From: Acidobacteriota bacterium | GTDB taxonomy: Bacteria; Acidobacteriota; Thermoanaerobaculia; Multivoradales; JAGPDF01 | Length of the DNA: 64,000 nt | Direction: 5' to 3' | NCBI GenBank assembly: GCA_045862895.1 | Contig: BTUO01000001.1 | Location: 998,890 to 1,062,889, forward strand | Shown here: positions 340-63,225 of the stretch, one piece after another | Position numbering within the stretch: the stretch's first letter is position 1 | Layout: every line of letters starts with the position of its first letter | Notes under the pieces: generated by a model | Databases searched by the model: none | Seen by the model: only the letters and a program-made list of their open reading frames with translations | Told to the model about the DNA's origin: nothing | Made by a program: the position numbers and the translations under genes

Positions 340-520
340 GCTGGTTAGGAGCCAGCCATGTTTCCCGGCCCGGGAAACGCCGCCGCCGCGTCCGCGGCCG
401 TCGGGTTTCCTTCGGGCGGGAAACGGCTGGCAGCTGCTCGCTTGAGCTCGCAGGTCGATTCGGCGGCCAGGAGTTGCAAGTTTGCAACTCCACGGCGAGC
501 ACCCTCAGCTGGGGGCCGCG
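340..520. promoter_or_regulatory. candidate oriT / relaxosome binding region upstream of mobC-relaxase
   Basis: Three inverted repeats lie in non-coding DNA directly 5' of mobC. They are at 360-378 (GTTTCCCGG c CCGGGAAAC, perfect 9-bp arms), 405-424 (GTTTCC...GGAAAC, imperfect) and 470-491 (GGAGTTGCAA gt TTGCAACTCC, perfect 10-bp arms). MOBP/MOBQ oriTs typically sit in this position; the nic site itself was not identified. Confidence 0.4.
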
Positions 521-883
521 GTGAGCCGCCGTGGGCGCCCGCGCAAGGACCCAGCGCGGGCTCGCGTCGTCAAGAACGGCGCGCACTTCACCCCCGCCGA
601 GGACGGCCGGCTGCGCGAGCGTGCCCGCATCCTCGGAATTACGGTCGCCGAGCTCCTGCGCGAATCATCGCTCGGCCGACCGCTCCCCCGGCGCCACCAG
701 CCCCACCCGATCGCTTCGGATCAGTGGGTCGAGCTCGGGCGGCTCGCCGCGAACCTGAATCAGCTCCAGCGAGCGATCAACCGAGGGCAGACCGAGGACG
801 TGCCGGTCGCCCTCGTGGAAGAGCTTCGCTGCCTGCTCCACGAGGTCCGCCAGGCGCTCGTCGGCAACGCGGGTGCCGCGTGA
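482..883 (+). CDS. mobC: mobilisation accessory protein MobC
   Basis: The frame includes the RGRPRKDP N-terminus typical of MobC. It sits directly upstream of the relaxase and its stop overlaps the relaxase start (GTGA). The probable true start is GTG at 521, where the protein would begin VSRRGRPRK. Confidence 0.65.
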   Translation: MQLHGEHPQLGAAVSRRGRPRKDPARARVVKNGAHFTPAEDGRLRERARILGITVAELLRESSLGRPLPRRHQPHPIASDQWVELGRLAANLNQLQRAINRGQTEDVPVALVEELRCLLHEVRQALVGNAGAA

Positions 884-3132
884 TCCAGAGCATCCACAAG
901 GGCAAGAGCTTCCGTGGCGTCCTCAACTACGTCTTCGGCCGCGCCAAGTCGCCCGAGCTGGTCGGCGGCAACATGTATGGCGAGGACCCACGGGCGCTCG
1001 CGCAGGAGTTCGGCGAGTGGCGGGAGTTGCGGCCAGGCCTGACTCGGGTCGTCTTCCACTCCTCCCTGTCGCTCCCCCACGGACCGAGCGGGCGCGAGGA
1101 GCTCACCGACGCGCAGTGGCGCGACGTCGCCGAGCGTTACCTGGAGCATCTCGGCTACGGGCGCTCGCCGTTCGTGGTCGTGCGGCATCGCGACACCGAG
1201 CACGACCACGTCCACATCGTCGCGGCGCGCATCGGCGCTGACGGCCGCGCCGTCTCCGACTCGCACGACTACCGACGCGGCGAGGAGGTCCTGCGGGCGC
1301 TCGAGCGCGAATACGGGCTCACTCAGGTCAAGTCCGCGCATGAGGTCGACAAGTCCGCCCTGCGAACGGGCGAGATTCGACAGATCGAGCGGACGGGGGA
1401 GGTGAGCAAGCGGCTCCGGCTCCAGGATCTCCTCGACCGCGCCGCCGCCGACCGACCGTCGATGAGCGTCTTCCTCGAACGGCTGGGGGAAACGGGAGTC
1501 GAAGCGGTGCCGCGGGTCGCGACCACGGGACACGTCTCGGGCATCTCCTACGGGCTCGAGGGGGCGAGCTTCCGGGGTTCGGCACTCGGCCGCTCGTACT
1601 CCTGGCGAGGGCTCCAGGAGCGCCTCGGCGTCGACTACCAGCCAGAGCGCGACCTCTCGGCGGTCCGAGCGGCCGCGGCGGCTCGGCCGGATCGTGGCGC
1701 CGGTCGCGCGCCCTCGTCTTGGTCTCCTGCGAGCCTCGACGCGCTGCGGAAGGAGCTCGATGCACTCCCGAGCGCCGCGCGGCGCGGCGCCGTGTCGGGC
1801 GCCACGGCCGGACTCGCCCGTAGCGGCGCCGGAGCGCTCGACGGCCCGGCCGACGCCGTCCGCGTGGCCTACGCTCTTCGCTCTCCTCGTTCGGCGCTTC
1901 GCCTCGCCGTGCGCCGGACGCCCGGACTGGGCGCCGTGGCGCCGATTCTCGACCTCGCCACGGCGGCGCGCTCACCTCTCGGACTGCTCCTCTACGGCGC
2001 GCGCCTCGCGACGGCTGCGGGCCGGCTGGCGCTGCCTGCGCTCGCCCGAAGCGTCGCTCCGAGCCCGTTGTCGCGGAGCGTCGCCGCGGCCTACGTCCGA
2101 GCGGCAGCTACGGACGCACCCTCGATGAGCGTGCTCCTCGAACGCCTCGCGTCCGCCGGCGTCCGGCCGCTCCCGCTGCTCGGACGCGGTGGAGAGGTGC
2201 GCGCGATCGCCTATCGCCTGGGTGACGAGGTGATCCCCGGCCAGGCGCTCGGACCGTCCTTCACCTGGACCGGCCTGCAACGGCGACTCGGAGTGAGCTA
2301 TGAGCCGACGAGAGACCTTCCTCGAATCCGCGAGAGTCGTGAACGATCAGGCACTGAACGAGATCCCCGCTCCGGCGCGGAGCAGCTCAACGAGCGGCGA
2401 TCTGGCCGCGATCCTGGGCGCCATGACGGAGACGAACCGAAGGCTGGAGGCGGTCGAGCGAGCCGTTCAGGCAGCGCCGCAGGCGAGGCGCGATCCCACG
2501 ACCTCGAGGCCGGCGAGGGAGCGCGCGGCGGGGATCGCCGTGTGGACTCTCGCCGCGTCCCTGATCACGCTGCTGGGGATCACGCTGCTCAAACCCGACT
2601 GGGCGCTCCGGCCCCGGCAGCGGGCCGAGCTGCTACTCGGCGAGAGGCTCTACCAGCGCCTGCAGCACATGGAGGAGCCGGAGCGGCTCGAAGTGCTGGA
2701 GTCACTCTGGGTGGATCCGCCACCGACGAGCGACTAGCCGCGGCCGAGCTCCGTGCGGCTCTATGGGGAACCGGGACGCCCGAGCTTGCGACGTATCACC
2801 GGCATCGCGCCTACTCCGCCAACCTCGAGCGCGCGGACTCGGCTTGGGCGACCGCAGCGCTCCGGCGCGGCGTCGAGCCGCATGTTGTGCTGCGCGAGGT
2901 GGCGGAGAGGGGAGCCAAGGCTGCGGCTCCGAAGGAAGCCGCGCTCGCCCACGGAACGCGCGTCGTGGCGCGCGCGCTTGCGACGGTGCAGCCAGGGCGC
3001 GCCGTCGAGCAGACGGTCTCAATGACCGTGCAGGCGCTCGCCACTGCGGTCAAGGTGCCGCTCGCGGTCGTGAAGGCACTGCTGATCATCCGCACCATCG
3101 CGCGGGAGCTGTCGCAGGACCGGGGCCGATGA
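880..3132 (+). CDS. conjugative relaxase (MobA/VirD2-like, MOBP/Q-type relaxase-mobilisation nuclease domain) with repeat-containing C-terminal domain
   Basis: The N-terminus reads IQSIHKGKSFRGVLNYVFGRAKSPELVGGNMYGEDPRALAQEF and the three-His motif is HRDTEHDHVHIVAARIG, both typical of the Pfam Relaxase family. The GTG start at 880 overlaps the mobC stop. The six-frame ORF 358-3132 is an artefactual 5' extension through the oriT region. Confidence 0.85.
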   Translation: MIQSIHKGKSFRGVLNYVFGRAKSPELVGGNMYGEDPRALAQEFGEWRELRPGLTRVVFHSSLSLPHGPSGREELTDAQWRDVAERYLEHLGYGRSPFVVVRHRDTEHDHVHIVAARIGADGRAVSDSHDYRRGEEVLRALEREYGLTQVKSAHEVDKSALRTGEIRQIERTGEVSKRLRLQDLLDRAAADRPSMSVFLERLGETGVEAVPRVATTGHVSGISYGLEGASFRGSALGRSYSWRGLQERLGVDYQPERDLSAVRAAAAARPDRGAGRAPSSWSPASLDALRKELDALPSAARRGAVSGATAGLARSGAGALDGPADAVRVAYALRSPRSALRLAVRRTPGLGAVAPILDLATAARSPLGLLLYGARLATAAGRLALPALARSVAPSPLSRSVAAAYVRAAATDAPSMSVLLERLASAGVRPLPLLGRGGEVRAIAYRLGDEVIPGQALGPSFTWTGLQRRLGVSYEPTRDLPRIRESRERSGTERDPRSGAEQLNERRSGRDPGRHDGDEPKAGGGRASRSGSAAGEARSHDLEAGEGARGGDRRVDSRRVPDHAAGDHAAQTRLGAPAPAAGRAATRREALPAPAAHGGAGAARSAGVTLGGSATDERLAAAELRAALWGTGTPELATYHRHRAYSANLERADSAWATAALRRGVEPHVVLREVAERGAKAAAPKEAALAHGTRVVARALATVQPGRAVEQTVSMTVQALATAVKVPLAVVKALLIIRTIARELSQDRGR

Positions 3133-3656
3133 TTCGGCTCAAGACGAGGGCGCCCCTGGTCGCGGTCGGTGTCTTCCTCCTGATCTACGTCGTCCCGCAG
3201 GCCGTGGGTCTCCGGATCAACACCTCGACGAGCATGCCCCGGGGCCTGTACCGCTCGGTCGGTGGAAGCGCACGGCCGGGCGCGTGCGCGGCCGTCTGTC
3301 TCCCGGCGGTCGTCTCGAGGTTCGGGATGGAGCGCCACTACCTCGGCGCCGGATCCTGCCCCGACGGCGCTGAACCGGTCGTGAAGATGGTTGCGGCGGT
3401 CGGGGGCGACGTCGTCGAGGTGACGGCGGCGGCGGTCCTCGTCAACGCCATCGCCCTGCCGAACAGCCGGCCGCTCGACCGCGATCGAGGAGGCCGCGCG
3501 CTCACGCCGTACGCGCGGGGACCCCAACGCCTCGAGCCGGGGGATGTGTGGCTCCATTCACCCTACGAGGAGCGCAGCTGGGACAGCCGCTATTTCGGCC
3601 CCGTGCGCGTCGAATGCGTCACGACGCTCGTCGAGCCGGTGCTGACCTTCCGATGA
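3129..3656 (+). CDS. traF: conjugal transfer signal peptidase TraF (S26 peptidase family)
   Basis: Begins MIRLKTRAPLVAVGVFLLIYVVP and ends ...WLHSPYEERSWDSRYFGPV, matching the TraF/TrbF-peptidase family. The ATG at 3129 overlaps the relaxase stop (ATGA). Confidence 0.7.
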   Translation: MIRLKTRAPLVAVGVFLLIYVVPQAVGLRINTSTSMPRGLYRSVGGSARPGACAAVCLPAVVSRFGMERHYLGAGSCPDGAEPVVKMVAAVGGDVVEVTAAAVLVNAIALPNSRPLDRDRGGRALTPYARGPQRLEPGDVWLHSPYEERSWDSRYFGPVRVECVTTLVEPVLTFR

Positions 3657-5761
3657 GCGCCCAGCCGCCCTATCGGCATTCGTCCAACGGGGAGGTCACG
3701 GCCAAGGGCGTCGTCGTTCGCGGCATAGCGGTAGTGATCGGTGTCGGCGTGCTGGTCGCATGGGCGGTGACGCAGCACGCTGCGCTGCGTCTCGGGTTTC
3801 ACCCGTCGCTCGGGCGCCCGTGGCTCCCCGCGCTCCCCGGCCGCGAGGTGCTGTTGAACCTCGTGGCGTGGGCGCTGTGGGGTGCGGCGCTGCTGCTCCT
3901 CGTTCCGAAGCGCACGCGGTTGCTCTCCCCCATCGTCGCCGTGCTCGGGGCAGGAGCCTTCGCCTGGTCGCAGGGGCCGCTCTTCACCCCCTTCCACGTC
4001 GTCGTCTGGGCTCGGCGCCTCGGAGCAACGGCCGAGACACGGGAGTTCTGGAAATCGGGATTCCAGGTTCTTGGCGTGGTGACGGGAGCCGCGGCGGCCG
4101 TGGCGGCCATTGTCGTAGCCGTCGTGATCCGGCGACTCAGGCCGCAGTCGGACCTGCACGGCTCGGCACAATGGGCGACGGAGCGGGAGGCGAAGGATGC
4201 CGGGCTGTTCGCTGAGACTGGGCTGATCCTGGGTCAGTGGCCTGGCCAAGAGGGGCGAGGACGAACGCTCCGACACGACGGTCCGGAGCACGTCTTCGTC
4301 TTCGCCCCGACCCGGAGCGGCAAGGGCGTCTCGCTGGTCGTGCCGAACCTGCTCACCTGGCCGCACTCGGTGCTCGTCCACGACATGAAAGGGGAGAACT
4401 GGGTGCTCTCGGCGGGCTGGCGCAGCCGCGAGCTCGGCAGCCTCTGCCTCAAGTTCGATCCGACTTGCTCGGATGACTCGGGGGCGCGCTACAACCCGTT
4501 GCTCGAGATCCGGATGGGCGACCAGGAGGTGCGCGACGCGCAGAACGTGGCCGACATCCTCGTGGACCCGAACGGCGACCGGATTCGGGACCACTGGGAT
4601 CGGACGGCCCACTCCCTGCTCGTCGGCCTGATCCTGCACGTTCTCTATGCGGAGAAGGAGAAGACGCTCGCTGGCTGCGCGCACTTCCTCGCGCGCCCCG
4701 ACCGCCCGATCGACCTGAGCCTCGAGGTCCTGCTGGGCAGCGAACACGCGCCGCCCGGTCATCCTGGTTGGCGCGACCCGGTGACAGGAGACTGGCTGCG
4801 GACGCACCCCACCGTCGCCGCCGCAGCGCGCGCGCTGATGGACAAGTCGCAGAACGAGCGCTCCGGTGTCCTCTCGACAGCCCTCAGCTTCCTCGACCTC
4901 TATCGCGATCCGATCCTGGCCCAGAACACCGCCGTCTCGGATTTCGCGCTCGAGGACTTGGTGAGCCACGAGCGGCCGGTGAGCCTCTACCTGACGGTTC
5001 CGCCGTCCGACCTCAGCCGCACCCGTCCCCTCGTCCGGCTCCTCCTGAACCAGGCTTGCCGGCGCCTGACGGAGCGGATGGACTTCTCGGCGGGTCGGGG
5101 GAGAGGGGCGGGAAAGCACCCGCTCCTCCTGATGCTCGACGAGTTCCCGGCGCTCGGGAAGCTCCAGTTCTTCCAGGAGTCCCTGGCCTACCTCGCCGGC
5201 TACGACATCCGGGCGATGCTGATCACCCAAGACCTCTCGCAGCACCAGGGCGTCTACGGCAAGCAGGAGTCGATCACGGCGAACTGCCACGTCCGGATCG
5301 CCTTCGCTGCGAACAAGCCGGAGACTGCCGAGCTGCTGTCGCAGATGGCCGGCGACACCACGGTGTCGCACAAACAGGTCTCCTACCGAGGTGGGCGCTT
5401 CGACCTGGTGATGGACCACCGGAACATCACACAGCAGGAGATCCGACGCCGATTGCTCACTCCCGACGAGGCGATGCGCCTCGATCCCGACCACGCCGTC
5501 GTGTTCGTGGCGGGTCAGCAGCCGATCTACTCGGCGAAGGCGCGCTACTTCGCCGACCGCGAACTGTCGCGGCGGGCGAGCCTGCCCGCGCCGGAGAGTA
5601 CCGAACGCGTCATGCCGCACACCTCGACGTGGCAGCGCCTCGAACCGATCGCCAGCCCGGCACGGGCCAGCGCCGAAGTCGACGCGTGCGGGCGCGCGAG
5701 CGCGGCAGCGGGTCAGCGCTGCGATCGGGACCGGGCCCTGGATCGGTCGCCGAGCCTCTAG
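3653..5761 (+). CDS. traG: type IV coupling protein TraG/VirD4
   Basis: The N-terminus is membrane-anchored. The Walker A region reads FVFAPTRSGKGVSLVVPNLLTW and ...LLMLDEFPALGKL... is typical of TraG/VirD4. The ATG at 3653 overlaps the traF stop. The 785-aa antisense ORF 3590-5947 is rejected. Confidence 0.85.
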   Translation: MSAQPPYRHSSNGEVTAKGVVVRGIAVVIGVGVLVAWAVTQHAALRLGFHPSLGRPWLPALPGREVLLNLVAWALWGAALLLLVPKRTRLLSPIVAVLGAGAFAWSQGPLFTPFHVVVWARRLGATAETREFWKSGFQVLGVVTGAAAAVAAIVVAVVIRRLRPQSDLHGSAQWATEREAKDAGLFAETGLILGQWPGQEGRGRTLRHDGPEHVFVFAPTRSGKGVSLVVPNLLTWPHSVLVHDMKGENWVLSAGWRSRELGSLCLKFDPTCSDDSGARYNPLLEIRMGDQEVRDAQNVADILVDPNGDRIRDHWDRTAHSLLVGLILHVLYAEKEKTLAGCAHFLARPDRPIDLSLEVLLGSEHAPPGHPGWRDPVTGDWLRTHPTVAAAARALMDKSQNERSGVLSTALSFLDLYRDPILAQNTAVSDFALEDLVSHERPVSLYLTVPPSDLSRTRPLVRLLLNQACRRLTERMDFSAGRGRGAGKHPLLLMLDEFPALGKLQFFQESLAYLAGYDIRAMLITQDLSQHQGVYGKQESITANCHVRIAFAANKPETAELLSQMAGDTTVSHKQVSYRGGRFDLVMDHRNITQQEIRRRLLTPDEAMRLDPDHAVVFVAGQQPIYSAKARYFADRELSRRASLPAPESTERVMPHTSTWQRLEPIASPARASAEVDACGRASAAAGQRCDRDRALDRSPSL

Positions 5762-17959: not shown

Positions 17960-19525
17960 ATGTCCGCAAAGAGACGCCGGCGCCGTCGGGGGGCCGGCCA
18001 CACGCCTCTCTCGAAGCTCCAGAAGCGCGGAAGCGCTCTTCTGTCTCCGTACGCTGGTCTTCCGATGAAGTCGAGCTTTTGGGACCGCGATCTCGTCCCA
18101 GAGTTCCTCTGGGTTGGCGCCCTCCGCGAACTCGTGCCGCTCGATGACCTTCACAAGCCGCACTACGCGCTCATGGACGCGCTCGACAGCTGCTGGCGCA
18201 GCGAAGAGCCGGCTATCGGAATGATCAGCGAGTTCGGGGACGCAAGCCTGGATAGAGCAGCCTTCGTGACCAACCACGCAGCGGTACTGCGCGATGTCTT
18301 TCTTGGGCCATTTGGGCGTCTGCTTGCGTTCTATCCCGACTCGCCTGCGAGTTGGCTTGTTTCGCGCGAGTTCTTGGATGAAGGCGGCCATCTCGATCCG
18401 GGGAGAGAGATTCCCATTCTCCGCAACCTCGTAACCGATCTCCTGGACCCCCGAGGTGAGCTCGCGACGGCAGTCCGAATGGTGGCCTTGGGAAGACTCC
18501 TCAAGGGCGGTCGGATGCTCTTCCCCAGGGACTTTCCACTCGCGTCCTTGCTGCCGAAGTACCCGGACGGATGCACTGCGGATGAGCGCGCTGAGATCGA
18601 GTCGTTTGGACGGGCCGCCGTTGGTGCCCATCTTTCCGCGACCGCGGAACGGCGCACCAACGAGTGGGCAAGGTACTTCTGGCGCCACAACTACGATCTG
18701 ACTCCCTGCAGACCACGGCTGATGATCGTCGCCGGAGGACGGCCCGCCGAGGCGGGGGATCTCGAGCGACTTCAGGAGCTTGTAGGGAAGAACACCGAGG
18801 CCGCCCGGTCCTACATCGATCGCCTGGCACAGAGGATTGCATACGACCTCTATGAGCCGGAGCAAGGAGAGGTCCTGCACGGATTGTTCGCGCGGACGGT
18901 CCGGCTCTATCTCCTCGTGTGTGAGAACCCATCGCTGTGGGCCAGGGACGTGGCCGGGATTCTGCTTCGCTGCCTAGTCGAGACGGCGATCACGTTCTGC
19001 TACTTGGCGGCAAGAGGCGAAAGCGAGGACTTCCGTCGCTTTCGAGAGTATGGAGAAGCTCAGAAGAAGCTCCTCATGCTCCACCTTCAGGACTCGCACC
19101 CGGATGCCGTGACGCTCGAAGGCAGGACATCCGAAGACATCTCCGCTGAGCTTGGAGGCTTCTCCGCCGAGCTGTTACACATAGAGCTCGGGAACTGGTC
19201 GAAACTGGACGCGCGAAAGCTGGCGAAGGAAGCCGGGCTCGAGGAGTACTACAGGCTCATCTTCACTCCCACGAGCGCCGACATCCATGGAACTTGGGCG
19301 AGTCTGAAGGACTCGAACCTTTCGATCTGTAGCGAGGTCCTTCATCGGTTTCATCGGCTGCCCACCTACGCGGAGCCGCCCCTATTCGTAGCGACGCTCG
19401 AGGCTGCCCAAGCAGTTCTGCGAAGAGTCCATGCTGTGGCAGTCGAGAGGCTCCGATTCCCTCCCGATCTAGTGCTCGAAGGCCTGCTGGACGAACAGCC
19501 CGAGCCAGACGAGCCACCGGCCTAG
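17960..19525 (+). CDS. hypothetical protein (521 aa), lower-GC cargo gene
   Basis: A long ORF with protein-like composition and no recognised motifs. Its GC is visibly lower than that of its neighbours. The true start may be an internal Met near 18065. The antisense ORF 17957-18880 is rejected as non-protein-like. Confidence 0.45.
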   Translation: MSAKRRRRRRGAGHTPLSKLQKRGSALLSPYAGLPMKSSFWDRDLVPEFLWVGALRELVPLDDLHKPHYALMDALDSCWRSEEPAIGMISEFGDASLDRAAFVTNHAAVLRDVFLGPFGRLLAFYPDSPASWLVSREFLDEGGHLDPGREIPILRNLVTDLLDPRGELATAVRMVALGRLLKGGRMLFPRDFPLASLLPKYPDGCTADERAEIESFGRAAVGAHLSATAERRTNEWARYFWRHNYDLTPCRPRLMIVAGGRPAEAGDLERLQELVGKNTEAARSYIDRLAQRIAYDLYEPEQGEVLHGLFARTVRLYLLVCENPSLWARDVAGILLRCLVETAITFCYLAARGESEDFRRFREYGEAQKKLLMLHLQDSHPDAVTLEGRTSEDISAELGGFSAELLHIELGNWSKLDARKLAKEAGLEEYYRLIFTPTSADIHGTWASLKDSNLSICSEVLHRFHRLPTYAEPPLFVATLEAAQAVLRRVHAVAVERLRFPPDLVLEGLLDEQPEPDEPPA

Positions 19526-19678
19526 TCGACAACCGGTTTGCCCGCAGAACCCGCGTCCGGTGTCGTTTCATCGGCGCCCCACATTCGATTCCGCTGCTCG
19601 CGGCGCGCAAGGCCGAGCCCTCCGGGTGGCCTGCGGCCAGCCTTGTCGCGCCGCTGCGCGGCTACATCTCGGGTGGGC

Positions 19679-20212
19679 ATGCGCCGAACGACACCCAACC
19701 GCGAGAGCCAAGATCCCCAGTCCCAGAACCGCCTCAACTTCGTCGAGCCCGGCAAGCCGGGTTTCGAGCCGGAGACGATCGCCCGCTACCGCGTGGCCCT
19801 CGTCCGCGAAGAGGCCACCCCCTATGAGTCGCCCGAGCACTGCGGTGACCCCGCGGCCGCTGCCCGGTTCCTCCACACCATCCTGTCGTCCTGGGATCGG
19901 GAGGTCATGGGCGCCCTGTTCCTGGATACCCGCAACCGGGCGATCGGGCACCAGCTCGCCTACATCGGCACGCTGACCCGCGCCGCCGTCGAGCCTCGCG
20001 GCATCCTGACCGCCGCGTTGCTCGTCAACGCCGCCGGAATCCTCCTCTTCCACAACCACCCGAGCGGGGATCCGTCGCCCAGCGCCGAAGACCTCGCTTT
20101 CACCCGCCGGATGGCGGAGGCGGGCGAAGTCGTCGGGGTCCGGCTCGTCGACCACATCATCGTCGGGGAGGCACCCGCCTTTGTCTCCCTCCGCCAGCGG
20201 GGCGCGTTCTGA
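19679..20212 (+). CDS. radC: RadC-family JAB/MPN domain protein
   Basis: JAMM motif LLFHNHPSGDPSPSAED. The start is chosen at the ATG at 19679 within ORF 19538-20212. Confidence 0.8.
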   Translation: MRRTTPNRESQDPQSQNRLNFVEPGKPGFEPETIARYRVALVREEATPYESPEHCGDPAAAARFLHTILSSWDREVMGALFLDTRNRAIGHQLAYIGTLTRAAVEPRGILTAALLVNAAGILLFHNHPSGDPSPSAEDLAFTRRMAEAGEVVGVRLVDHIIVGEAPAFVSLRQRGAF

Positions 20213-20855: not shown

Positions 20856-21175
20856 AGCCCTGCGCGGGGGTTCCTACTCCGCCCGGTGCCGAAGGCGTTC
20901 GACTCAGGTCTACAAGCTAATGACCGCACGTCGCCTCGCCTGGAAGCGGCAGGCGCGCTCTCACCCTCGACCTTCACGCGGTCGCCCTTGTCGGGCGTTC
21001 GAGGAGGAATCGGTGTCCAGGCGGCGCAGCGGATCGGTGACCGCCCTCGGCAGCGCAGCTGACGGCTGAAGACCAAACCGCGCATTCGGGGGAAGCGCTG
21101 AACCGGGGACTCGCGCCGAGATCGAGCCCCGCTTCGTGACCAGCCTGCCGGGGAGGCAAGCCTGCTACCGAGGCC

Positions 21176-21960
21176 CGGGCAGGCGAGCGCCGCGCCAGCC
21201 AGAAGCCGCTGTCACGCCTCTCGCCACACGCTCCAGGGTGCCCCACCGGGCTGCGCGCGAGCCCCTCGTCTCCTCCGGGGCGTCGTGCTCGCCCAGCCAC
21301 CCACCCTGGAGCAGCCCGTGCCTCTTCGTCCTCGCGCCCTCACCGACGTCAAGAGTGCGAAGGGCGGTCTCGTCATCCTCCTCCTTTGATCGCGGTCTCC
21401 GCCCAACGTCCCGTAAACCGTGCCCGCGGTGCGCCCGGCCGCAAGGCCAAGCCTCCGGCGCGCCGACTGACGTCAAGCGGCGCGGCCTTGTCGGCCGGGC
21501 TTCGTTCACCCCGGGCTCCCACCGGGCCGTGTTGGACGGTAACCACAACCAAAGGAGAAGGCAGATGACCAACAAGACCGCAATCACCCTCTACGGCAAC
21601 GTCGGCGGAGACCCGGAGACCCGCACCATCCCCGGCAAGCAGGTCACGAAGCAGTTCTACGACCCGATCATCGACGACATGGTCGAGCGCGAGTTCACCA
21701 CCCCCGAACGCGAGGTCCGGACCTTCTCGATCGCCGTCAGCAAGAAGGACGCCGAGGGCAACGACGTCACCCGCTGGATCCGCTGCGATGACTGGAACCG
21801 CCTCTCCCGCCTGGTCGGCAAGGGCGACCGTGTGAAGGTCAAGGGTCACTTCCGCGAGCGCACCTACCAGAAGGACGGCGAGACGAAGACCGTGCGCGAC
21901 TTCGTCGTCGAGGACCTCAAGATCGAGCGCCACAAGATCCGGCAGCGGGCGGAGTAGGAA
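21176..21960 (+). repeat. direct repeat copy 1 (~780 bp; structured leader + ssb-like gene), ~90% identical to 49274-50048
   Basis: Direct comparison of the two regions in the sequence. Similarity begins at GGCAGGCGAGCGCCGCGCCAGCC and ends at the ssb-like stop codon. Substitutions and small indels are concentrated in the non-coding leader. Confidence 0.85.
21565..21957 (+). CDS. SSB-like OB-fold protein (130 aa, no acidic C-terminal tail), copy 1
   Basis: The RBS AAAGGAGAAGG lies 4 nt before the ATG. Third-position GC exceeds 90%, whereas the in-frame upstream extension 21136-21564 has markedly lower third-position bias. ITLYGNVGGDPETRT ... KGDRVKVKGHFRERTYQKDGETKTVRDFVVEDLKI matches the SSB OB-fold pattern. 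Confidence 0.65.
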   Translation: MTNKTAITLYGNVGGDPETRTIPGKQVTKQFYDPIIDDMVEREFTTPEREVRTFSIAVSKKDAEGNDVTRWIRCDDWNRLSRLVGKGDRVKVKGHFRERTYQKDGETKTVRDFVVEDLKIERHKIRQRAE

Positions 21961-34839: not shown

Positions 34840-36312
34840 TCAGTGCTGATGGCCGGTGTTGGCGGGCGTCGGGGCGGTGGCTCCGGCGGACGGTGCGGGT
34901 GCCTGCGCCGCCTGCAAAGCGGCGCGCAGTTTCGATTCGGAGTCGAGAAGGAAGTTGGCACGGGTCGCTACGCGTTCGCCTTCACGAACTCCCGACGAAA
35001 TGACGACCCTGCCGGCGCCACGAAGTCCGACCTGGACATCGCGCGGCTCGAAGGTTCCGGGCTCGAGCTCGACGAAGACCACCTGCCTCAGTCCGGTGTC
35101 GATCACCGCGTCCTCGGGGACGGCGATGCCATCGGCCGCCTCCAGGTCGGCCGTGACGTCGACGAACATGCCGGGCTTCAGGTGACCGTCGAGATTGCCC
35201 AGCTCGAGGCGCACCTTGAGAGTCCGGCTCTCGGCCGAGAGCGTCGGGTAGATGAAGGTGACCTCGGCAGGCATGACGTGTCCGGCCTCGTAGGGCAGGT
35301 GGACATCCGCCCGCTGTCCGACGCGCAAGAGCCGCGCTTCGTTCTCGTAGAACTCGGCCTCCACCCAGACATGGGAGAGGTCGGTGAGCGTGAAGAGCTC
35401 CATACCGGGCTGAACCTCCATTCCTTCGAGAACCTCCTTGGTGCTCACGAAGCCGGAGGCCGGTGCGACCAGCGTGACCGTGCGTTGCGCCTTGCCCGTG
35501 CGCTCGATGGTCTCGAGGAAGCTCTGTGGCACGTCGAACAGCTCCAGACGTCGGCGCGACGATGCGGCGAGCTCTTCGCCGCCTTCTCTGACTTCGGGAA
35601 TGTTGGAGCTCGCGAAGCGGGCGGCCGACTGCCGGGCGCGCAGGTACTCTTCCTGCGAGGCGAGCAACTCCGGCGAGTAGATGGCGAGAACCGGCTGGCC
35701 TCGGCGCACCAGTTGCCCGGTGAAGTTGACGTGGAGTTTCTCCACCCAACCGGCGATCTTGGTGTGGACGTGGCGAACCAGCCGCTCATCCGGCAGCACC
35801 AGACCCACGGTCCGGGTGGAGCTGGCGAGATGCTCGCGCGCCGCGACCGCGGTGCGGACGCCGGCGAGCTGGATGCCGCCGGCGTTTACGGAGACGGTCG
35901 CCAGCCCCGGAACCGAGCTCGCCGGGCGCGAGGCTTCGTCTGCATAGACCGGCACGTACTCCATCCCCATCGAGTCTTTCGCCGGCACCGGCGAGGTCAC
36001 CGACGGGTCCATCGGGCTGCGGTAGAAGAGGATGCGACGCTGTTCGGCGCCCGCGGCGCTGCCGGACCGGTCCGCGGCGTGCTCGCTCTTAGGAATCGGC
36101 ACCAGCTTCATGCCGCAGATCGGGCAGTCGCCCGGCTTGTCGGAGGTGTAGGTCGGGTGCATCGGGCAGTGCCAGCCGGCCCCCTCCTCCGAGTGCTCGG
36201 CGCCGCAGCCGAGAAACGGCAGGGCGACGAGGAGCAACCCGAGCACGAGCAGCGTGCGCCGGGCCGCGGCGGAGCGGGCGAGAGAATGGAACGGGTTGCG
36301 GAACATGGTCAC
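34840..36312 (-). CDS. cusB: RND efflux membrane fusion protein CusB/CzcB with N-terminal CPMHP...CPICGM metal-binding domain
   Basis: Signal/lipobox region, then WHCPMHPTYTSDKPGDCPICGMKL and a periplasmic adaptor beta-barrel region. Confidence 0.8.
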   Translation of the reverse strand: MTMFRNPFHSLARSAAARRTLLVLGLLLVALPFLGCGAEHSEEGAGWHCPMHPTYTSDKPGDCPICGMKLVPIPKSEHAADRSGSAAGAEQRRILFYRSPMDPSVTSPVPAKDSMGMEYVPVYADEASRPASSVPGLATVSVNAGGIQLAGVRTAVAAREHLASSTRTVGLVLPDERLVRHVHTKIAGWVEKLHVNFTGQLVRRGQPVLAIYSPELLASQEEYLRARQSAARFASSNIPEVREGGEELAASSRRRLELFDVPQSFLETIERTGKAQRTVTLVAPASGFVSTKEVLEGMEVQPGMELFTLTDLSHVWVEAEFYENEARLLRVGQRADVHLPYEAGHVMPAEVTFIYPTLSAESRTLKVRLELGNLDGHLKPGMFVDVTADLEAADGIAVPEDAVIDTGLRQVVFVELEPGTFEPRDVQVGLRGAGRVVISSGVREGERVATRANFLLDSESKLRAALQAAQAPAPSAGATAPTPANTGHQH

Positions 36313-42253: not shown

Positions 42254-43601
42254 GGCTCGGCTCCTTTTCCGGCGCCGCCGGGTCGACCCGCCACGACACC
42301 GTGCCCGGCGGGTAGTCGTACCAGCCCGGATCCTCGTAGCTGGTGATCCCTTCGCGGATCTTCAGCACCGTGAACATGCCGCCCATCTCGATCGGTCCGA
42401 ACGGCCCCGTGCCGGTCATCATCGGCAGCGTGTTGGGCAGGCCGGGCATGTGCTCGCTGTGCGCCGCGTGCTCGGCCATGCCGGAGGAGCCCATCGCCAT
42501 GTAGCCCTCTACCAGGCGCGAGATCTCACGCGAGACGCCCTGCTGATCGACGCCGATCATGTTCGGGATGTCGTGGCCCATCGCGTTCATCGTGTGGTGC
42601 GTCTTGTGGCAGTGGAGCGCCCAGTCGCCGGGGTTGTCGGCGACGAACTCGAAGGCGCGGGTGGTGCCCGGCATGACGTTGATCGTCGTCTCCGGCCACC
42701 AGGCCGAGCGCGGGATCTGGCCGCCGTCGGTCTCCGTGACCCACATCTGGTGACCGTGGAGGTGGATCGGGTGGCTCGTCATGCTGATGTTGGCGAGCCG
42801 GATGCGGGTCCGATCGCCGAGCCGGCAGACCAGCGCGTCGGTGCCGGGGAACGCCTTGCCGTTGAAGGTGAAGAGATTGAAGTCGAGCATCACGGACGGG
42901 TCGGGCGTCTTCGTTCCCGGTCGAATGAAGAACATGTGCGGGAAGATGCAAAAGTCGCGGTCGATCTGCCGCTCGGGGCGCTTCGGGTGGATGATGAAGA
43001 AGCCCATCATCCCCATCGCCATCTGGACCATCTCGTCGGCGTGCGGGTGGTACATGTGCGTCCCGTGCTGTCGCAGCGTGAACTCGTAGACGTAGGTCTC
43101 GCCCGGTTGGATCTGCGGCTGGTTCAACCCGCCGACGCCGTCCATGCCCGCCGGCAGCAGGATGCCGTGCCAGTGGATCGTGGTGTGTTCCGGCAGCCGG
43201 TTCTCGACGAACAGGCGGACGCGATCGCCCTCGACCGCCTCGATCGTGGGGCCCGGCGACGTGCCGTTGTAGCCCCAGGCGTTGACCTTCATGCCGGGCG
43301 CGAACTCGACCTCGACGGGCTCGGCAACGAGATGGAACTCCTTCACTCCGCCATTCATGCGGAAGGGGAGGGTCGGTACGTTTGGCGTTATGACCGGTGT
43401 ATAGGGCAGGCCGCGCGCGGCGCGTCTCGCCGCCGGAGCGGGGGGCGGCGTCGCGGGCGGATCGGCGGGCTGGCCGTGCCCCGCGTGCGGAGACTGAGCG
43501 AGGGCCTCGCCTCCGCCCAGGGAGAGGCGGGCGCGATCGAGCAGGGCCGCGCCCGCCGCGAGCAGGGCGGCACGAGAGAGCCAGGTGCGGCGCGAAATCA
43601 T
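42237..43601 (-). CDS. multicopper oxidase (CueO/CopA/CuoB-like), Tat-secreted
   Basis: Tat motif SRRTWLSRAALLAAGA. Copper ligands HWHG, HPHADEMVQMAMGMMG, HPIHLHGH and HCHKTHHTMNAM. Confidence 0.85.
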   Translation of the reverse strand: MISRRTWLSRAALLAAGAALLDRARLSLGGGEALAQSPHAGHGQPADPPATPPPAPAARRAARGLPYTPVITPNVPTLPFRMNGGVKEFHLVAEPVEVEFAPGMKVNAWGYNGTSPGPTIEAVEGDRVRLFVENRLPEHTTIHWHGILLPAGMDGVGGLNQPQIQPGETYVYEFTLRQHGTHMYHPHADEMVQMAMGMMGFFIIHPKRPERQIDRDFCIFPHMFFIRPGTKTPDPSVMLDFNLFTFNGKAFPGTDALVCRLGDRTRIRLANISMTSHPIHLHGHQMWVTETDGGQIPRSAWWPETTINVMPGTTRAFEFVADNPGDWALHCHKTHHTMNAMGHDIPNMIGVDQQGVSREISRLVEGYMAMGSSGMAEHAAHSEHMPGLPNTLPMMTGTGPFGPIEMGGMFTVLKIREGITSYEDPGWYDYPPGTVSWRVDPAAPEKEPSHEHGG

Positions 43602-45037
43602 CGGTTGCCTCCGGTCGAGGGGTGCTTGTGCTCAGCGATTGGGGCCGGCGAGCCGTCTCCTGGCGGTGCCAGGGCGGACGTTGCCCTCTCGGCGAGCGCG
43701 CCGCCGACGGCGCGCTCGAGCCGTGCGCGAGCGATCCAGTAGTCGCGGCGCGCGGCGGTCGCCGCTTGTTCGGCTTCGGTCTCCTCGCGGCGCGCGAGCA
43801 GGAGGTCGTAGACGCCGAGCAGCATCATGTTGTAGTGCAGAAGGGTCTGCTCGAGGACTTCCCGGCGCTTCGGCAGTAGGGTCCCCTCGTGCGCTTCTAC
43901 GAGTGCCCGGGCGCCGATCAGGCGATCCCTCGCCAGCCGGACCTCGGAGCGGATCTCGATGGCGAGCTGTTCGAGCAGGCGCTGCGCTCGCCGCTGCTCG
44001 GCCTCGAGGCGAGCGATCGAGGCTGCCCCGGTGTCGAAGATGGGCAGTGCGATCGCGAGCTGCGGCCCGCGCAGCCGCGTCCCGTCGGTGTCCTTCTCCT
44101 GGTTGAGGCCGACCTCGATGCCGACCGGGAAGTAGCGCGTGCCGCGCTTGAGCGCGAGGGCGCGGCCGACGAGGTCGACGCCGAAGCGTGCCGCGCCGAG
44201 GTCGAGCCGCTGTTCGATCGCGCGGCGCTCGAGCCCGGCCGAATCGGGATCCGCGGCCGGCAGGGGCGGCAGGTGGCGCGCCGCCGTCCATTCGGTCGCC
44301 GCCCCAGAGAGGCCGAGGAGCACGTTCAGCCGCTCCCGCGCCTCGCCTTCGTCGAGCTCTGCCCGGGTGAGATCCACCAGCGCCTGGGCGTCGGCGGCCT
44401 CGAACAGCGCGATCTCGCGCACCTCGAGGTTTCCGGCGTCGCGCTGCCGGCGCGCCAGCTCGGCCGCCGCCGCCGTCAGGTCGCGCACGGTCGTCGCGCG
44501 GTCGGATGTCTCCTCGGCGGCGACGAGCTCGAAGAACGCGACGCGCGTTTCGGCGACAAGGTCGAGCATCGTCTGGCCGAGGCGGAGCTTCGCGGCCTCG
44601 AGCTCGACCGCGGCCAGTCGCTTGCGGGCTGGCTGCACGAGAATGTCGAGGATGTCCTGCACTATTTCGACCTCGATGTTCGTGCCCGATCCCTCGCTCG
44701 GCGTCCGGCGGAAGGCAGACAGACCGGGATTGGCCAGCCGGGTTGCTTGCGCGTAGTCGGCGCGGGCGATGCCCAGCTCCTCGATCTCGGCGAGCAGCTC
44801 ACGGTTGCGGAGCAGGGCGATCTGCGCCGCGGAGCGATCATCGAGCGGGTCGGCCAGCAGGCGCGCGGCGGCCTGCTCGGCGGCGTCCTCTTCGGTCTCC
44901 GTGCGAGCCCACGACGCCTGGGCGCCGGACCTTTCGTTGACGGTCTCGGCGACGCTGTCGAACGTCGGCCGCGGATCGACCGAGGCGCAGCCGGCGAAAA
45001 GCAGGAGACCGAGGGGGGCGAGAGCGGCGCGGGTCAT
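43598..45037 (-). CDS. TolC-family outer membrane efflux lipoprotein
   Basis: Lipobox LLLFAGCAS and the two-repeat coiled OEP pattern. Confidence 0.65.
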   Translation of the reverse strand: MTRAALAPLGLLLFAGCASVDPRPTFDSVAETVNERSGAQASWARTETEEDAAEQAAARLLADPLDDRSAAQIALLRNRELLAEIEELGIARADYAQATRLANPGLSAFRRTPSEGSGTNIEVEIVQDILDILVQPARKRLAAVELEAAKLRLGQTMLDLVAETRVAFFELVAAEETSDRATTVRDLTAAAAELARRQRDAGNLEVREIALFEAADAQALVDLTRAELDEGEARERLNVLLGLSGAATEWTAARHLPPLPAADPDSAGLERRAIEQRLDLGAARFGVDLVGRALALKRGTRYFPVGIEVGLNQEKDTDGTRLRGPQLAIALPIFDTGAASIARLEAEQRRAQRLLEQLAIEIRSEVRLARDRLIGARALVEAHEGTLLPKRREVLEQTLLHYNMMLLGVYDLLLARREETEAEQAATAARRDYWIARARLERAVGGALAERATSALAPPGDGSPAPIAEHKHPSTGGNR

Positions 45038-45453
45038 GGCGCGCCGTGCTCCTTCTCGACCGGGACGAGCGCCATCCCGCACTTCGGGCAGGCTCCAGGT
45101 TCGGAGGAGCGCACCTCGGGGTGCATCGGGCAGGTGTAGGCGACCGCCTGGGACTCAGCGCCGGGTGCGGATTCGTGATGCTCATGCCCGGATGGCGCCG
45201 CCTCGGGCGCTTCCGAGTTGGCCGTGGCGCGCGGCGGTACGTACGGCGACCGGGGAGATTCGGCGGCGTCAGGGTTCGCCGGATTCTGGGCGCGACCCGC
45301 CGTGGGTGGCGGGGTGACGGTGCATCCGGCGAGCAGCAGCAGCGACGCCAAGGCGAAAACGGGGGCGGTCGGCACGGGGCGGCCTCCTCGATCGTGGAGT
45401 GCGGAGCAACCCCACCGGCAGCGCCGGCGGGGCACGGAGACAACTGTCGCCAC
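45034..45453 (-). CDS. lipoprotein with CusB-N-terminal-like CPMHPE...CPKCGM metal-binding domain
   Basis: Lipobox [39 protein letters not shown]. The start codon is uncertain (probably an internal GTG). Confidence 0.45.
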   Translation of the reverse strand: MATVVSVPRRRCRWGCSALHDRGGRPVPTAPVFALASLLLLAGCTVTPPPTAGRAQNPANPDAAESPRSPYVPPRATANSEAPEAAPSGHEHHESAPGAESQAVAYTCPMHPEVRSSEPGACPKCGMALVPVEKEHGAP

Positions 45454-45940: not shown

Positions 45941-48583
45941 TCAATTCGACCCTGACGAAACCGAGGGGCCGCTCGCCGGGCTCGCAGGCGGCGCTCCGAG
46001 CGCTCCGCCGCCGACTTCGACGCGGAAGGCGCGCAGACGCAGCGCGTTGGCGATGACCGACACGGAGCTCAGGCTCATCGCAGCAGCCGCCAGCATGGGC
46101 GACAGTAGCCAGCCGGTGAAGGGATAGAGCAGCCCGGCCGCGATGGGCACTCCGGCGGCGTTGTAGGCGAAGGCCCAGAAGAGGTTCTGCCGGATGTTGC
46201 GCATCGTGGCGCGCGAGAGCTTGCGGGCGCGGGCGATGCCCCGCAGATCGCCGCGCACCAGCGTCACGCCTGCGCTCTCCATCGCGACGTCGGTGCCGGT
46301 GCCCATCGCGATGCCGACCTCGGCGCGGGCGAGCGCGGGGGCGTCGTTGATGCCGTCTCCGGCCATGGCGACGAAGCGACCTTCGGCCTGGAGCCGCTCG
46401 ACCTCGCGCACCTTCTGGTCGGGAAGTACCTCGGCGACGATCGTGTCGATGCCGAGGGTCCTACCCACCGCCTCCGCCGTCTTTCGGCTGTCGCCGGTCA
46501 GCATGACGATGCGGATCCCTTCGCCGTGCAGGGAGCGAAGTGCCTCGACCGTCGTGGCCTTGATCGGGTCCGCGACCCCCAACAGGCCGGCGAGGCGGTC
46601 TCCAACCGAGAGGTACATCACCGTCTGGGCTTCGCCCCGGAGTCGTTCCGCCTCGTCACGAAGCGAGGTGACGTCGACGCCGCTTTCCTCCATGAGCTTG
46701 AGGTTGCCCAGCGCGACACGCTTGCCGGCGACGAGCCCGGCCACGCCCTTGCCAGTCAGTGACTCGAAATCGACGACCTCGGCGGCCTCCAGACCGCGTT
46801 CACTCGCTCCCGCGAGGATCGCCGCCGCCAGCGGATGCTCGCTGCCGCGCTCGATCGCCGCCGCGAGCCGCAGGACCTCGTTCTCGTCGAATCCGGTTGC
46901 CGGTCGCAGGGTGACGAGCCTGGGCTTGCCCTCGGTGAGGGTGCCGGTCTTGTCGACCACCAGCGTGTCGACCTTGCGCAACAGCTCGATCGCTTCGGCG
47001 TTACGGAACAGGACCCCCATCGAGGCCGCCTTGCCCGTCGCCACCATGATCGACATCGGCGTCGCGAGCCCGAGAGCGCACGGGCAGGCGATGATGAGCA
47101 CGGCGACCGCATTCACCAGGGCGTGGGCCAGACGTGGCTCAGGTCCCAGAACCGCCCACGCCGCGAAGGTCAGGGCCGCGATCGCCAGGACGGCGAGGAC
47201 GAACCAGCCGGAGATCTGGTCGGCGAGCTTCTGGATCGGCGCGCGGCTGCGCTGCGCCGCGGCGACCATGGCGACGATTCGCGCGAGCAGGGTCTCGGAG
47301 CCGACCTTCTCGGCGCGCATGACGAAGCCGCCGGCGCCGTTGATTGTGGCGCCGACGACAGGGTCGCCAGGTCCCTTCGAGACCGGCATCGGCTCGCCCG
47401 AGACCATCGACTCGTCGATCGCGCTGGTGCCCTCGAGCACGACGCCGTCGACCGGAACCTTCTCTCCGGGGCGAACGCGCAACCGGTCGCCTACCGCGAC
47501 GAGCTCGAGCGCCACGTCCTCTTCGACGCCATCCTCGCGCAGCCGGCGGGCGCTCTTGGCTGCGAGTCCCAGCAGCTTGCGGATCGCCGCGCCGGTCGCG
47601 CCCCGTGCCTTGAGCTCGAGCACCTGCCCGAGCAGGACGAGCGCCGTGATCACCGCCGCCGCCTCGAAGTAGACGGGTACGTGGCCGTTGGCGTCGCGGA
47701 AGGTCGCCGGGAAGATCCCGGGCACCAGGGTCGCCACCAGGCTGAAGCCGAATGCCACGCCGACGCCGAGACCGATCAGCGTGAACATGTTGAGGCTGCG
47801 GTGGCGCACCGAGGCCACCGCGCGTTCGTAGAACGGCCAGGCGGCCCAGGTACAGACGGGGATCGCCAAGAGCATCTCGAGCCAGAGCCGGGTCGATGCC
47901 GACAGGGTGCTCGCGACCGGCGTGCCCGGGAGGAAGGCGTCGCCCATGACCAGCACGAGCGTGCCCAGGGCGAGCGGCACGGAGACCCAGAAGCGGCGCC
48001 GCATGTCGAGGTACTCCGCGCTCGGCCCCTCCTCGAGCGTGGCTACGCGCGGCTCGAGCGCCATGCCGCAGATCGGGCAGCTGCCCGGCGCGTCGCGCAC
48101 GATCTCCGGGTGCATCGGGCAGGTCCACTCGGTCCTGGTGGCGAGCGGCGCCGGCATCACCGGCTCCAGGGCCATGCCGCACTTCGGGCAGGCTCCGGGC
48201 CGGTCGCTTTCGACCTCGGGGTGCATGGGGCAAGTCCACTTCGTGCCGCCCGGCGAGGCTTCCGCCGGTGCGGCCTTGGGTTGCGGGGCGTCGCCGGAAC
48301 CGGCAGGCTGCAGGTGAGGCTCGGTCGCTGCCTTTGCCGAGGTCGTCGCCGCCGGCTTCCCCGCGAGCGGGTAGCGCGTCGGATCGGCGTCGAACTTCGC
48401 CTTGCAACCCGCCGAGCAGAAGTGGACGACCTCGCCACCGCGCTCGGAACGGTGCTTCGAGGTCGCGGGATCCACCGTCATGCCGCAAACCGGGTCCAGG
48501 GCGCCCGTGGCGGTCGGCTGCGTGGTCGTCGAATGCGTCGGGTGAGAATGCTCGTGGCGGTTGGGGTCGTCGTGTGCGCTCAT
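45941..48583 (-). CDS. copA: Cu(I)/Ag(I)-translocating P1B-type ATPase with N-terminal YHS domain and two CPMHPE/CPxCGM metal-binding modules
   Basis: YHS motif CGMTVDP...HFCSAGC. Modules [21 protein letters not shown] and [21 protein letters not shown]. Transport motif CPC ([14 protein letters not shown]), phosphorylation site DKTGTLT, and a C-terminal [10 protein letters not shown]. The alternative-frame and antisense ORFs across this region are rejected. Confidence 0.9.
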
Positions 48584-49208: not shown

Positions 49209-49273
49209 CACGCGACGATACTCCCCTGGCGAAGACCGTCCGCCGCAGGACTGCCTGAGGCAGGGCAGGCGAG

Positions 49274-63010: not shown

Positions 63011-63165
63011 GGGTCAGCGGTGGGCAGAAAGTCGCCGGCGACGGTCCTCTCCTTCCGCCGGAGCACGGGCACGGCTGGGTGTCCTTTGACGCGGCGGGCG
63101 CCGTCAGAAGAGACACCAAACCCGTCACAGATGGAGCGGCTGCAGGGCTTGAGGTCCCGCCGGCA

Positions 63166-63225
63166 CGCGACTGCCAGACGCTCGGCGTCGTTGACGGGCT
63201 CGCCGATGGCGACCACCATTGCCAT
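63166..63225 (-). pseudogene. duplicated N-terminal fragment (about 19 codons) of the NERD-kinase gene fused after HsdS-like gene 2
   Basis: MAMVVAIGEPVNDAERLAV versus MAAVVPIGEPVNDAERLAIAHL. The 63166-63260 block is about 85% identical in nucleotides to 61536-61610. The ORF then diverges into non-coding-like sequence (62968-63165). Confidence 0.45.

Follow-up and report, generated by a model that had tools for sequence, protein, structure and literature searches.

To our knowledge, only a few enterobacterial plasmids have been shown to carry promoters that work in single-stranded DNA (ssDNA); proposals elsewhere have relied mostly on BLAST similarity or on searches for hairpins with promoter-like hexamers. 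Class 1 ssDNA promoters include Frpo1 and Frpo2 of the F plasmid and ssi1-3 of ColIb-P9/pESBL (Masai & Arai 1997; PMC9849209; PMC11541004; PMC12672017). Frpo1 and Frpo2 were reported to be 92% identical and 5 kb apart (PMC9849209); the identity obtained here was 88.6% over 457 nt. In plasmid leading regions, SSB and anti-defence genes are found and Frpo immediately precedes ssb; relaxase genes are usually the last to enter (PMC11541004, a survey whose criterion was BLAST similarity to known Frpo/ssi sequences). Class 2 (ardA/klcA) and class 3 (M.EcoGIX) ssDNA promoters of pESBL and F were identified by hairpin mining followed by 5' rapid amplification of cDNA ends (PMC12672017). Frpo has been described as a site of primer-RNA synthesis as well as a promoter, and a functional single-strand origin (sso) is known from ICEBs1 (PMC12672017, PMC4595007). 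Here we describe a family of hairpins in a 64-kb stretch of DNA from an Acidobacteriota bacterium (contig BTUO01000001.1; hereafter, the window), which holds part of an integrative Trb-type conjugative element. Two ssb-like genes of this element, ssbA and ssbB, are each preceded by a long non-coding leader (leaders A and B), and a shorter element of the same design precedes radC. The last ~185 nt of each leader and the radC copy are probably ssDNA promoters of the Frpo kind.

Both leaders belong to a direct repeat on the plus strand (21177-21957 and 49263-50045) that begins with GGGCAGGCGAGCG and ends at the ssb stop codon. The order in the window is radC, leader A with ssbA, a ~27-kb cargo, and leader B with ssbB. 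The original prediction had described conserved, non-coding leaders of ~390 nt before both ssb-like genes of a Trb-type element, and this description was confirmed. The leaders are 90% identical, with 36 substitutions and one 2-nt indel over 388/390 nt. They were judged to be non-coding because the substitutions are spread evenly over the codon phases (13/11/12) and GC content is flat by phase (0.65-0.79, versus 0.59/0.39/0.95 in the ssb gene). Together with indels of 2, 8 and 13 nt, these patterns ruled out a protein-coding leader, and no small protein is encoded. Note that the leader is open in frame with ssb (open reading frame, ORF, 21136-21957), as expected at 69% GC. The two ssb genes differ at 4 of 393 nt. 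Identities of 99% for the genes but 90% for the leaders suggest gene conversion or selection confined to the coding part.

To collect related loci, one genome per species was scanned for relatives of the SSB-like protein, which gave 69 loci, mostly in Thermoanaerobaculia (Acidobacteriota) genome bins. In close relatives (SSB-like protein at least 90% identical), the leader is present over its entire ~390 nt, with 86-97% identity; no more than its last ~190 nt is retained in distant relatives (protein 45-59% identical). An imperfect hairpin of ~185 nt makes up the conserved unit; it extends from an anti-Shine-Dalgarno box to a Shine-Dalgarno (SD) box, is forked at the tip and contains a conserved internal loop. 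Structure was predicted for both strands, and folding energies were compared with those of dinucleotide shuffles to give z-scores; a stable, extended hairpin was obtained. Folded as DNA, the minus strand of leader A gave -126 kcal/mol (z -6.6) and that of leader B -121.4 kcal/mol (z -6.3), versus -100.7 kcal/mol (z -3.8) for the plus strand of leader A. The corresponding z-scores for core hairpin A were -6.9 (minus) and -4.0 (plus). Folded as RNA, the plus strand gave z -6.6 for leader A and -5.6 for leader B.

Covariation was assessed on a sequence-only alignment of the minus strand of 25 SSB-linked homologues from Acidobacteriota (Thermoanaerobaculia). The consensus fold has 53 pairs, and 95% of its cells hold standard pairs, versus 39-47% when the partners were slid by 1-3 columns. 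Compensatory changes on both sides were found in 25 of the 53 pairs. The covariation score was 0.37, versus 0.17 in shuffles, and none of 500 shuffles reached the observed value. The core hairpin thus exists and has been selected for. A covariance model was built from the inner 131 positions of the hairpin; core hairpin A matched it at 21397-21539 on the minus strand (98.9 bits, E 3e-24).

The same alignment was used to determine which strand folds. On the minus strand (the ssb template), the 53 pairs comprise 1123 Watson-Crick cells, 130 G·U (G·T) cells and 5 A·C cells, a wobble asymmetry of 26:1. The A·C cells of the minus strand are the would-be wobbles of the plus strand, and neutral transitions should produce the two in equal numbers. 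An additional 22 G·U versus 4 A·C came from columns treated by RNAalifold as symmetric internal loops, so there is no hidden pool of A·C cells. The minus strand folded better in 33 of 33 copies, by a mean of 21 kcal/mol with RNA parameters and 8 kcal/mol with DNA parameters. For the consensus fold, the values were -72.9 kcal/mol with 53 pairs (minus) versus -27.7 kcal/mol with 28 pairs (plus). The selected structure is therefore on the ssb template strand and not in the mRNA leader. It follows that an ordinary riboswitch, thermosensor or autoregulatory site in the 5' untranslated region (UTR) is out as the main function.

The F plasmid's leading region, which holds an antirestriction gene, ssb, a ParB-family gene and psiB, was fetched for comparison. 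With DNA parameters, the template strand gave -119.1 versus -111.6 kcal/mol in the Frpo2 region (upstream of ssb) and -123.7 versus -113.9 kcal/mol in the Frpo1 region (upstream of ygeA). With RNA parameters, the template strand of both regions was better by about 27 kcal/mol. In sign and size, this strand asymmetry matches that of the Acidobacteriota hairpins. Since the F regions show a like asymmetry, an abundance of G·T pairs does not conflict with a structure that functions as DNA.

If the minus strand is read as a template, the 5' arm of the hairpin, which is contiguous with the gene, is the template arm, and the 3' arm, read from tip to base, is the non-template arm. Across the family, the non-template arm carries TTG-N3, a 16-nt spacer and, in most members, TA(C/A)AA(A/T) in the conserved unpaired loop. 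Among 39 distant copies, the bases C-C-T-T-G were each found in 37-39, and the positions 16 nt beyond the -35-like box read T (33), A (36), C/A, A (32), A (33), A/T. The CCTTG/CAAGG pairs are invariant in all 25 aligned SSB-linked copies, and the neighboring pairs covary freely. The -10-like box is located exactly where the helix opens into the conserved internal loop, and in predicted folds the -35 box is paired and the -10 box unpaired. In one of the alignments used here, the A at position 2 of the -10-position hexamer is invariant. The most divergent copies have other spacer sequences and better hexamers: TTGACA-16-TACGAT, TTGACA-16-CACAAT, TTTACA-15-TACAAT and TTGACG-16-GAAAAT. The mirror arm on the plus strand often contains TTGACA and has no -10-like box (mean match 2.0 versus 3.2), and for this reason a rightward promoter would be absent in double-stranded DNA (dsDNA). 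Positions of the boxes and of the other features are given in Table 1.

Table 1. Positions of the hairpins, their boxes, the leaders and associated genes in the 64-kb window.
Feature	Position	Strand	Remarks
Core hairpin A	21377-21561	minus	fold -66.8 kcal/mol, z -6.9; covariance-model match; covariation; wobble asymmetry
Base of core hairpin A	21381-21386; 21552-21557		anti-SD CTCCTT (first) pairs with SD AAGGAG (second)
-35-like hexamer TTGCGG, core hairpin A	21439-21444	minus	3' (non-template) arm, in the invariant CCTTG/CAAGG duplex
-10-position hexamer CACGGT, core hairpin A	21417-21422	minus	unpaired internal loop, 16 nt after the -35-like box; weak match
Core hairpin B	49468-49646	minus	covariance-model match 49485-49627, 94.9 bits; fold
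Boxes of core hairpin B	49469-49474; 49640-49645		anti-SD (first) and SD (second)
Hexamers of core hairpin B	49527-49532; 49505-49510	minus	TTGCGG and GACGAT, respectively, each the reverse complement of these positions
Third hairpin	19571-19687	minus	shorter, of like design (stem CGCAAGGC...GCCTTG, tip forked); immediately before radC
Leader A	21177-21564	structure read on minus	whole non-coding unit upstream of ssb copy A; direct repeat with 49263-49652
Leader B	49263-49652	structure read on minus	second copy of the whole unit; direct repeat with leader A
Upstream domain II	21177-21320 (copy B 49263-49408)	minus	Y-shaped fold, ~145 nt; close group only
GC-clamped tip hairpin GCGCGCCG-ACTGACGTCAAG-CGGCGCGG	21458-21485 and 49546-49573		
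Tip insertion CCGACTGACGTCAAGCGG	21463-21480 and 49551-49568		lineage-specific; carries TGACGTCA
Palindrome TGACGTCA	21468-21475 and 49556-49563		perfect, 8 bp
ssb-like gene, copy A	21565-21957	plus	130 aa; PF00436
ssb-like gene, copy B	49653-50045	plus	130 aa; 99% identical to copy A
Relaxase gene, MobA/VirD2-type	358-3132	plus	conjugative element
Type IV coupling protein (T4CP) gene	3548-5761	plus	conjugative element
DUF5677 protein gene	17960-19525	plus	

When the window was searched with the covariance model with filters off, three copies only were found, before radC, ssbA and ssbB; no match was obtained in the type IV secretion system (T4SS) genes or in the cargo. The copy upstream of radC is a partial match (19600-19654, minus, 41.4 bits, E 1e-8), and a partial element likewise precedes radC at five related loci (L004, L013, L014, L032 and L071). 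RadC was identified by its domain (PF04002, E 9e-36), and the gene probably starts at the ATG at 19679, not at the TTG at 19538 of the longest ORF.

The related loci gave 58 minus-strand matches, and no independent match in the opposite orientation was found among those searched with the model. Arrays reach up to five copies per 8 kb (L034 and L036) or five across a 20-kb locus (L071). Hairpin copies end about 20-65 nt, typically ~25 nt, before a start codon, and an AAGGAG-type SD box follows nearly all of them. The downstream genes encode SSB paralogues, RadC, a Mg-chelatase/ComM-like ATPase, a 592-aa ParB_N protein, a Macro-domain protein and a DprA-like protein. Some of these kinds of gene are known from plasmid leading regions as well. 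At L036, three SSB-like paralogues each have their own hairpin. An ArdC-like identity was considered for a downstream protein of 307 aa in L037 and was dropped, as Pfam did not confirm it. Several small proteins of no known function also directly follow hairpin copies; those with no Pfam match are at L034 6775, L026 191, L022 5665, L038 2948 and L035 3922. By position, these small proteins are candidates for establishment or anti-defence functions. Three further homologous contigs were checked around the hairpin arrays of distant elements: mobile-element genes were present, and no relaxase was found within 10 kb of the arrays.

Taken together, covariation, strand asymmetry, the one-orientation distribution, the hexamers and the likeness to the F Frpo regions support the original prediction of a Frpo-like ssDNA promoter before ssb. 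The hairpins appear to be a new class of ssDNA promoter in conjugative elements of Acidobacteriota, Frpo-like in function and not in sequence. In the proposed mechanism, one strand enters the recipient during conjugation, and this would be the minus strand, that is, the template strand of ssb and radC. Upon entry, it would fold into the long imperfect hairpin, the stem of which would mimic a duplex promoter: the 3' arm would supply the -35-like TTG in the invariant duplex and, 16 nt further, the -10-like A/T hexamer, unpaired in the conserved internal loop. Host RNA polymerase would bind, use the 5' arm as its template, moving from tip to base, and continue into the gene, giving an mRNA with a 5' leader of ~45-50 nt and a free SD box. 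Once the second strand is made, the hairpin would be gone; the rightward duplex would keep a -35-like box but no -10, and expression would stop. In this way ssb, radC and similar genes would be on before the second strand is made.

We infer the identity of the transferred strand, the binding of RNA polymerase, the start site and an activity that is limited to the single-stranded state. The minus strand was taken to be the transferred strand by analogy. TrbB, TrbE, TrbL, TrbG and TrbI homologues, ParA, ParB and RadC are encoded on the plus strand of the window. The relaxase, T4CP, Trb, ParA and ParB genes all point the same way as radC and ssb; F has a like arrangement, with ssb and psiB co-directional with traM and traJ, and a relaxase gene is usually the last to enter. 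If the minus strand is transferred, ssbB would enter before the cargo, and radC and ssbA after it.

Several points weigh against an ssDNA promoter. The -10-position hexamers in the window are weak: of the hexamer, CACGGT (A) and GACGAT (B) have retained just the A in position 2 and the T in position 6. Across the family, the -35 box is usually TTGCGG, not TTGACA. A high frequency of G·T pairs is more usual for RNA than for DNA, and a minus-strand RNA would fit the wobble data equally well. The radC copy has no strand asymmetry in folding energy, and the first 200 nt of the leader (domain II) are not explained by an ssDNA promoter. The transferred strand is assigned by analogy with F and with elements of the RP4 type: a search near the relaxase gene for an origin of transfer (oriT), by nic motifs of the RP4 and RSF1010 types, gave nothing usable. 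If oriT is located upstream of the relaxase gene, ssbA and radC would be outside the first-entering region, behind ~30 kb or more. Finally, promoter activity is predicted from sequence only, as this study consists entirely of sequence analysis.

The strand-specific folding also fits hairpins that are single-strand origins or priming signals (sso/ssi), at which RNA polymerase or primase is recruited to make a second-strand primer and mRNA is not the main product. Such a role has precedents in Frpo, which is both promoter and primer site, and in the functional sso of ICEBs1 (PMC12672017, PMC4595007), and several copies per element would provide several priming sites. We nevertheless regard it as unlikely, since priming alone leaves unexplained the short fixed distance to the start codon, the SD box in the stem base and the restriction to a particular gene set. 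The two functions may coexist, as in Frpo, and by the same analogy the hairpins may also prime second-strand synthesis. Less probable still is a cis-antisense RNA from the minus strand that would base-pair at the ribosome-binding region of ssb, radC and the rest of the genes and so repress them, as in FinP/traJ. The wobble asymmetry tells the strand and not RNA from DNA, G·U pairs are well tolerated in RNA, and the hairpin covers the SD box. However, conservation ends at the start codon and the downstream gene families are unrelated, so that there is no conserved antisense promoter; inspection of the sequence revealed no T-run terminator after the hairpin on the minus strand; and the segment complementary to the anti-SD would be locked in the stem. 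In addition, verified ssDNA promoters have a like wobble asymmetry.

A regulatory RNA in the plus-strand 5' UTR (a thermosensor, or an SSB autoregulatory or processing site) that hides the SD box is considered very unlikely. Plus-strand RNA does fold far below shuffles in both leaders, the anti-SD/SD pairing is Watson-Crick on both strands, and the SD box would be sequestered in read-through transcripts, which may be a secondary effect. As the selected fold, however, a plus-strand structure was rejected by the wobble counts: the 130 G·U cells of the minus strand are C·A mismatches in the mRNA, versus 5 in the reverse case, and the plus-strand consensus keeps 28 pairs at -27.7 kcal/mol. The occurrence of the element before unrelated genes also argues against SSB-specific autoregulation. 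We give even less credence to a mobile or recombinogenic palindromic repeat (MITE/REP/ERIC-type or attC-like) that has no role in expression. The hairpins are multi-copy, intergenic and palindromic, form one-orientation arrays and fold strand-specifically like attC bottom strands, and in the window leader-ssb units flank a block of cargo. But MITE and REP elements insert both ways at variable distances, whereas these hairpins have one orientation, a short and similar distance to a start codon and an SD box in the stem. At the stem base they read CTCCTTTCG/CGAAAGGAG and lack the attC core sites RYYYAAC/GTTRRRY, and copies in the window occur only before radC and ssb.

The original prediction had drawn attention to a GC-clamped hairpin with the palindrome TGACGTCA and had offered an operator as an alternative. 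The hairpin is present and identical in both copies, but it is not the conserved part of the leader, being a variable tip insertion. As an operator for a regulator, TGACGTCA has in its favor that it is a perfect 8-bp palindrome, is the same in both leaders and occurs nowhere else in the 64 kb; a related motif, GACGTCAAG, is located at 21345-21353. It lies, however, within a 13-nt insertion that is found in both window copies and a few others and is absent from every distant locus and from L003, L005 and L009, which are otherwise >90% identical to the leader. GACGTCAAG, in turn, is mutated in copy B and in several relatives. An operator was therefore rejected as a conserved feature and is considered highly improbable.

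Domain II, at the other end of the leader, hardly varies among 16 close copies and is missing from distant relatives. It also folds better on the minus strand (as DNA, mean -60 versus -48.5 kcal/mol). Compensatory changes were found in 5 pairs only, the domain being too conserved for covariation.

The SSB-like protein contains an SSB (OB-fold) domain (PF00436, E 2e-12, residues 40-119). It is short (130 aa), ends in ...KIRQRAE and is without the acidic C-terminal tip of canonical SSBs. Its 56 homologues are mostly from metagenomes and Thermoanaerobaculia genome bins, and, in public data, 406 sequences belong to its 90%-identity cluster. Several contigs among the 69 loci carry two SSB-like copies 12-48 kb apart, so that the two-copy layout and its spacing also occur in other genome bins. 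In the window, the leader-ssb direct repeats bracket the ~27-kb cargo (21958-49262), which encodes copper/heavy-metal resistance functions: a CusA-type RND pump, HlyD, OEP, multicopper oxidase, a P-type ATPase and an ECF sigma factor. A 46-nt repeat family has four copies on the minus strand (36097-36142, 45061-45106, 48050-48095 and 48161-48206), within an HlyD-like gene, a P-type ATPase gene and an OEP-family gene (43598-45082). In the HlyD-like and P-type ATPase genes, these probably encode a repeated heavy-metal-binding domain (PF19335) and are coding repeats, not DNA elements; for the OEP-family gene, Pfam gave no metal-binding domain. Just beyond ssb copy B, two large genes are located on the opposite strand (50114-55705 and 57387-61583, minus). 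One large minus-strand ORF encodes 1863 aa with no Pfam match; the other protein, of 1398 aa, has a NERD nuclease-related domain and a Ser/Thr kinase domain. Together they may form a module for defence or counter-defence. Inside a minus-strand gene block, the two copies of a direct repeat of 129 nt (61487-61615 and 63129-63257) are 79% identical.

The family described here belongs to integrative conjugative elements of uncultured Acidobacteriota and has no sequence similarity to Frpo; its comparative support is of three kinds, namely compensatory changes in the stem, the 26:1 wobble asymmetry, and conserved promoter-like boxes on the correct arm. If the promoter function is confirmed, conjugative elements across phyla would have in common a general strategy of early "zygotic" expression from the incoming strand. 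The downstream genes (the short SSB, RadC, ComM-like ATPase, ParB-like, Macro and DprA-like proteins, and the proteins of no known function) would become candidates for establishment and anti-defence roles. There would also be a sequence-based route to finding such promoters, and to inferring the transferred strand, in metagenomic elements. A bolder version, possible but doubtful, is a phylum-specific class of ssDNA promoter with a double lock, on transcription and on translation. The -10 box would exist only as an unpaired loop of the folded transferred strand, and pairing of the SD box with the upstream anti-SD would keep read-through mRNA from the established dsDNA element silent. SSB, RadC, ComM-like, ParB-like and Macro proteins would then be limited to the first minutes after entry, and the G·T versus A·C asymmetry would be a general computational call of the transferred strand in uncultured conjugative elements.

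Known systems resemble the hairpins to different degrees. The Rfam radC motif (RF01754) is found upstream of radC and other DNA-related genes. STAXI (RF01728) is a conserved structure near ssb, antirestriction and integrase genes in Enterobacteriales, for which a possible role in ssDNA has been discussed (Weinberg et al. 2010, PMC2864571). Both motifs are from other taxa (Proteobacteria and Enterobacteriales) and have another architecture, tandem pseudoknots in the case of STAXI. Searches around each element (E<=10) and on three loci with arrays (E<=1) gave no match to either motif, and no Rfam family matched at the gathering score over the whole window. A known RNA family was thus excluded at both gathering scores and permissive E-values. 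The attC sites of integrons are also imperfect hairpins that act as folded single strands, strand-specifically, in co-oriented arrays between genes. They follow their cassettes and carry R''/R' core sites, whereas the hairpins described here precede genes and hold an SD box and promoter-like hexamers; core sites RYYYAAC/GTTRRRY were absent from all aligned copies, in which the stem base is the SD box of the next gene. The sso of rolling-circle plasmids (ssoA and related) and of ICEBs1 (PMC4595007) are likewise strand-specific, folded ssDNA, recognized by RNA polymerase in one orientation only. However, an sso makes a short primer RNA that is untied to a downstream gene, and here every copy is coupled to a start codon.

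The class 2 and class 3 promoters show that unrelated hairpin sequences can be ssDNA promoters upstream of anti-defence genes; they are on enterobacterial plasmids and, unlike the hairpins described here, experimentally supported. The closest counterparts are Frpo and ssi. Homology in sequence to F Frpo was rejected: a blastn comparison of both leaders and the radC-upstream region with the F leading region gave a best E of 0.06 over 35 nt, and the covariance model had no match there. The present hairpins are also smaller (~185 nt versus ~330 nt in Frpo) and have a forked tip, and their stem base takes in the SD box, whereas the F hairpin ends ~45 nt before the start codon. Their host, unlike that of Frpo, is an integrative Trb-type element of Acidobacteriota. 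As in Frpo/ssi, the template strand forms a long imperfect hairpin, which lies immediately before ssb and other DNA-acting genes, and several similar copies are found per element (reported identity 92% for Frpo1/2; 90% for the leaders here). As in Frpo, the template strand folds better than its complement, and, as proposed for Frpo/ssi, -35 and -10 elements would be rebuilt within the stem.

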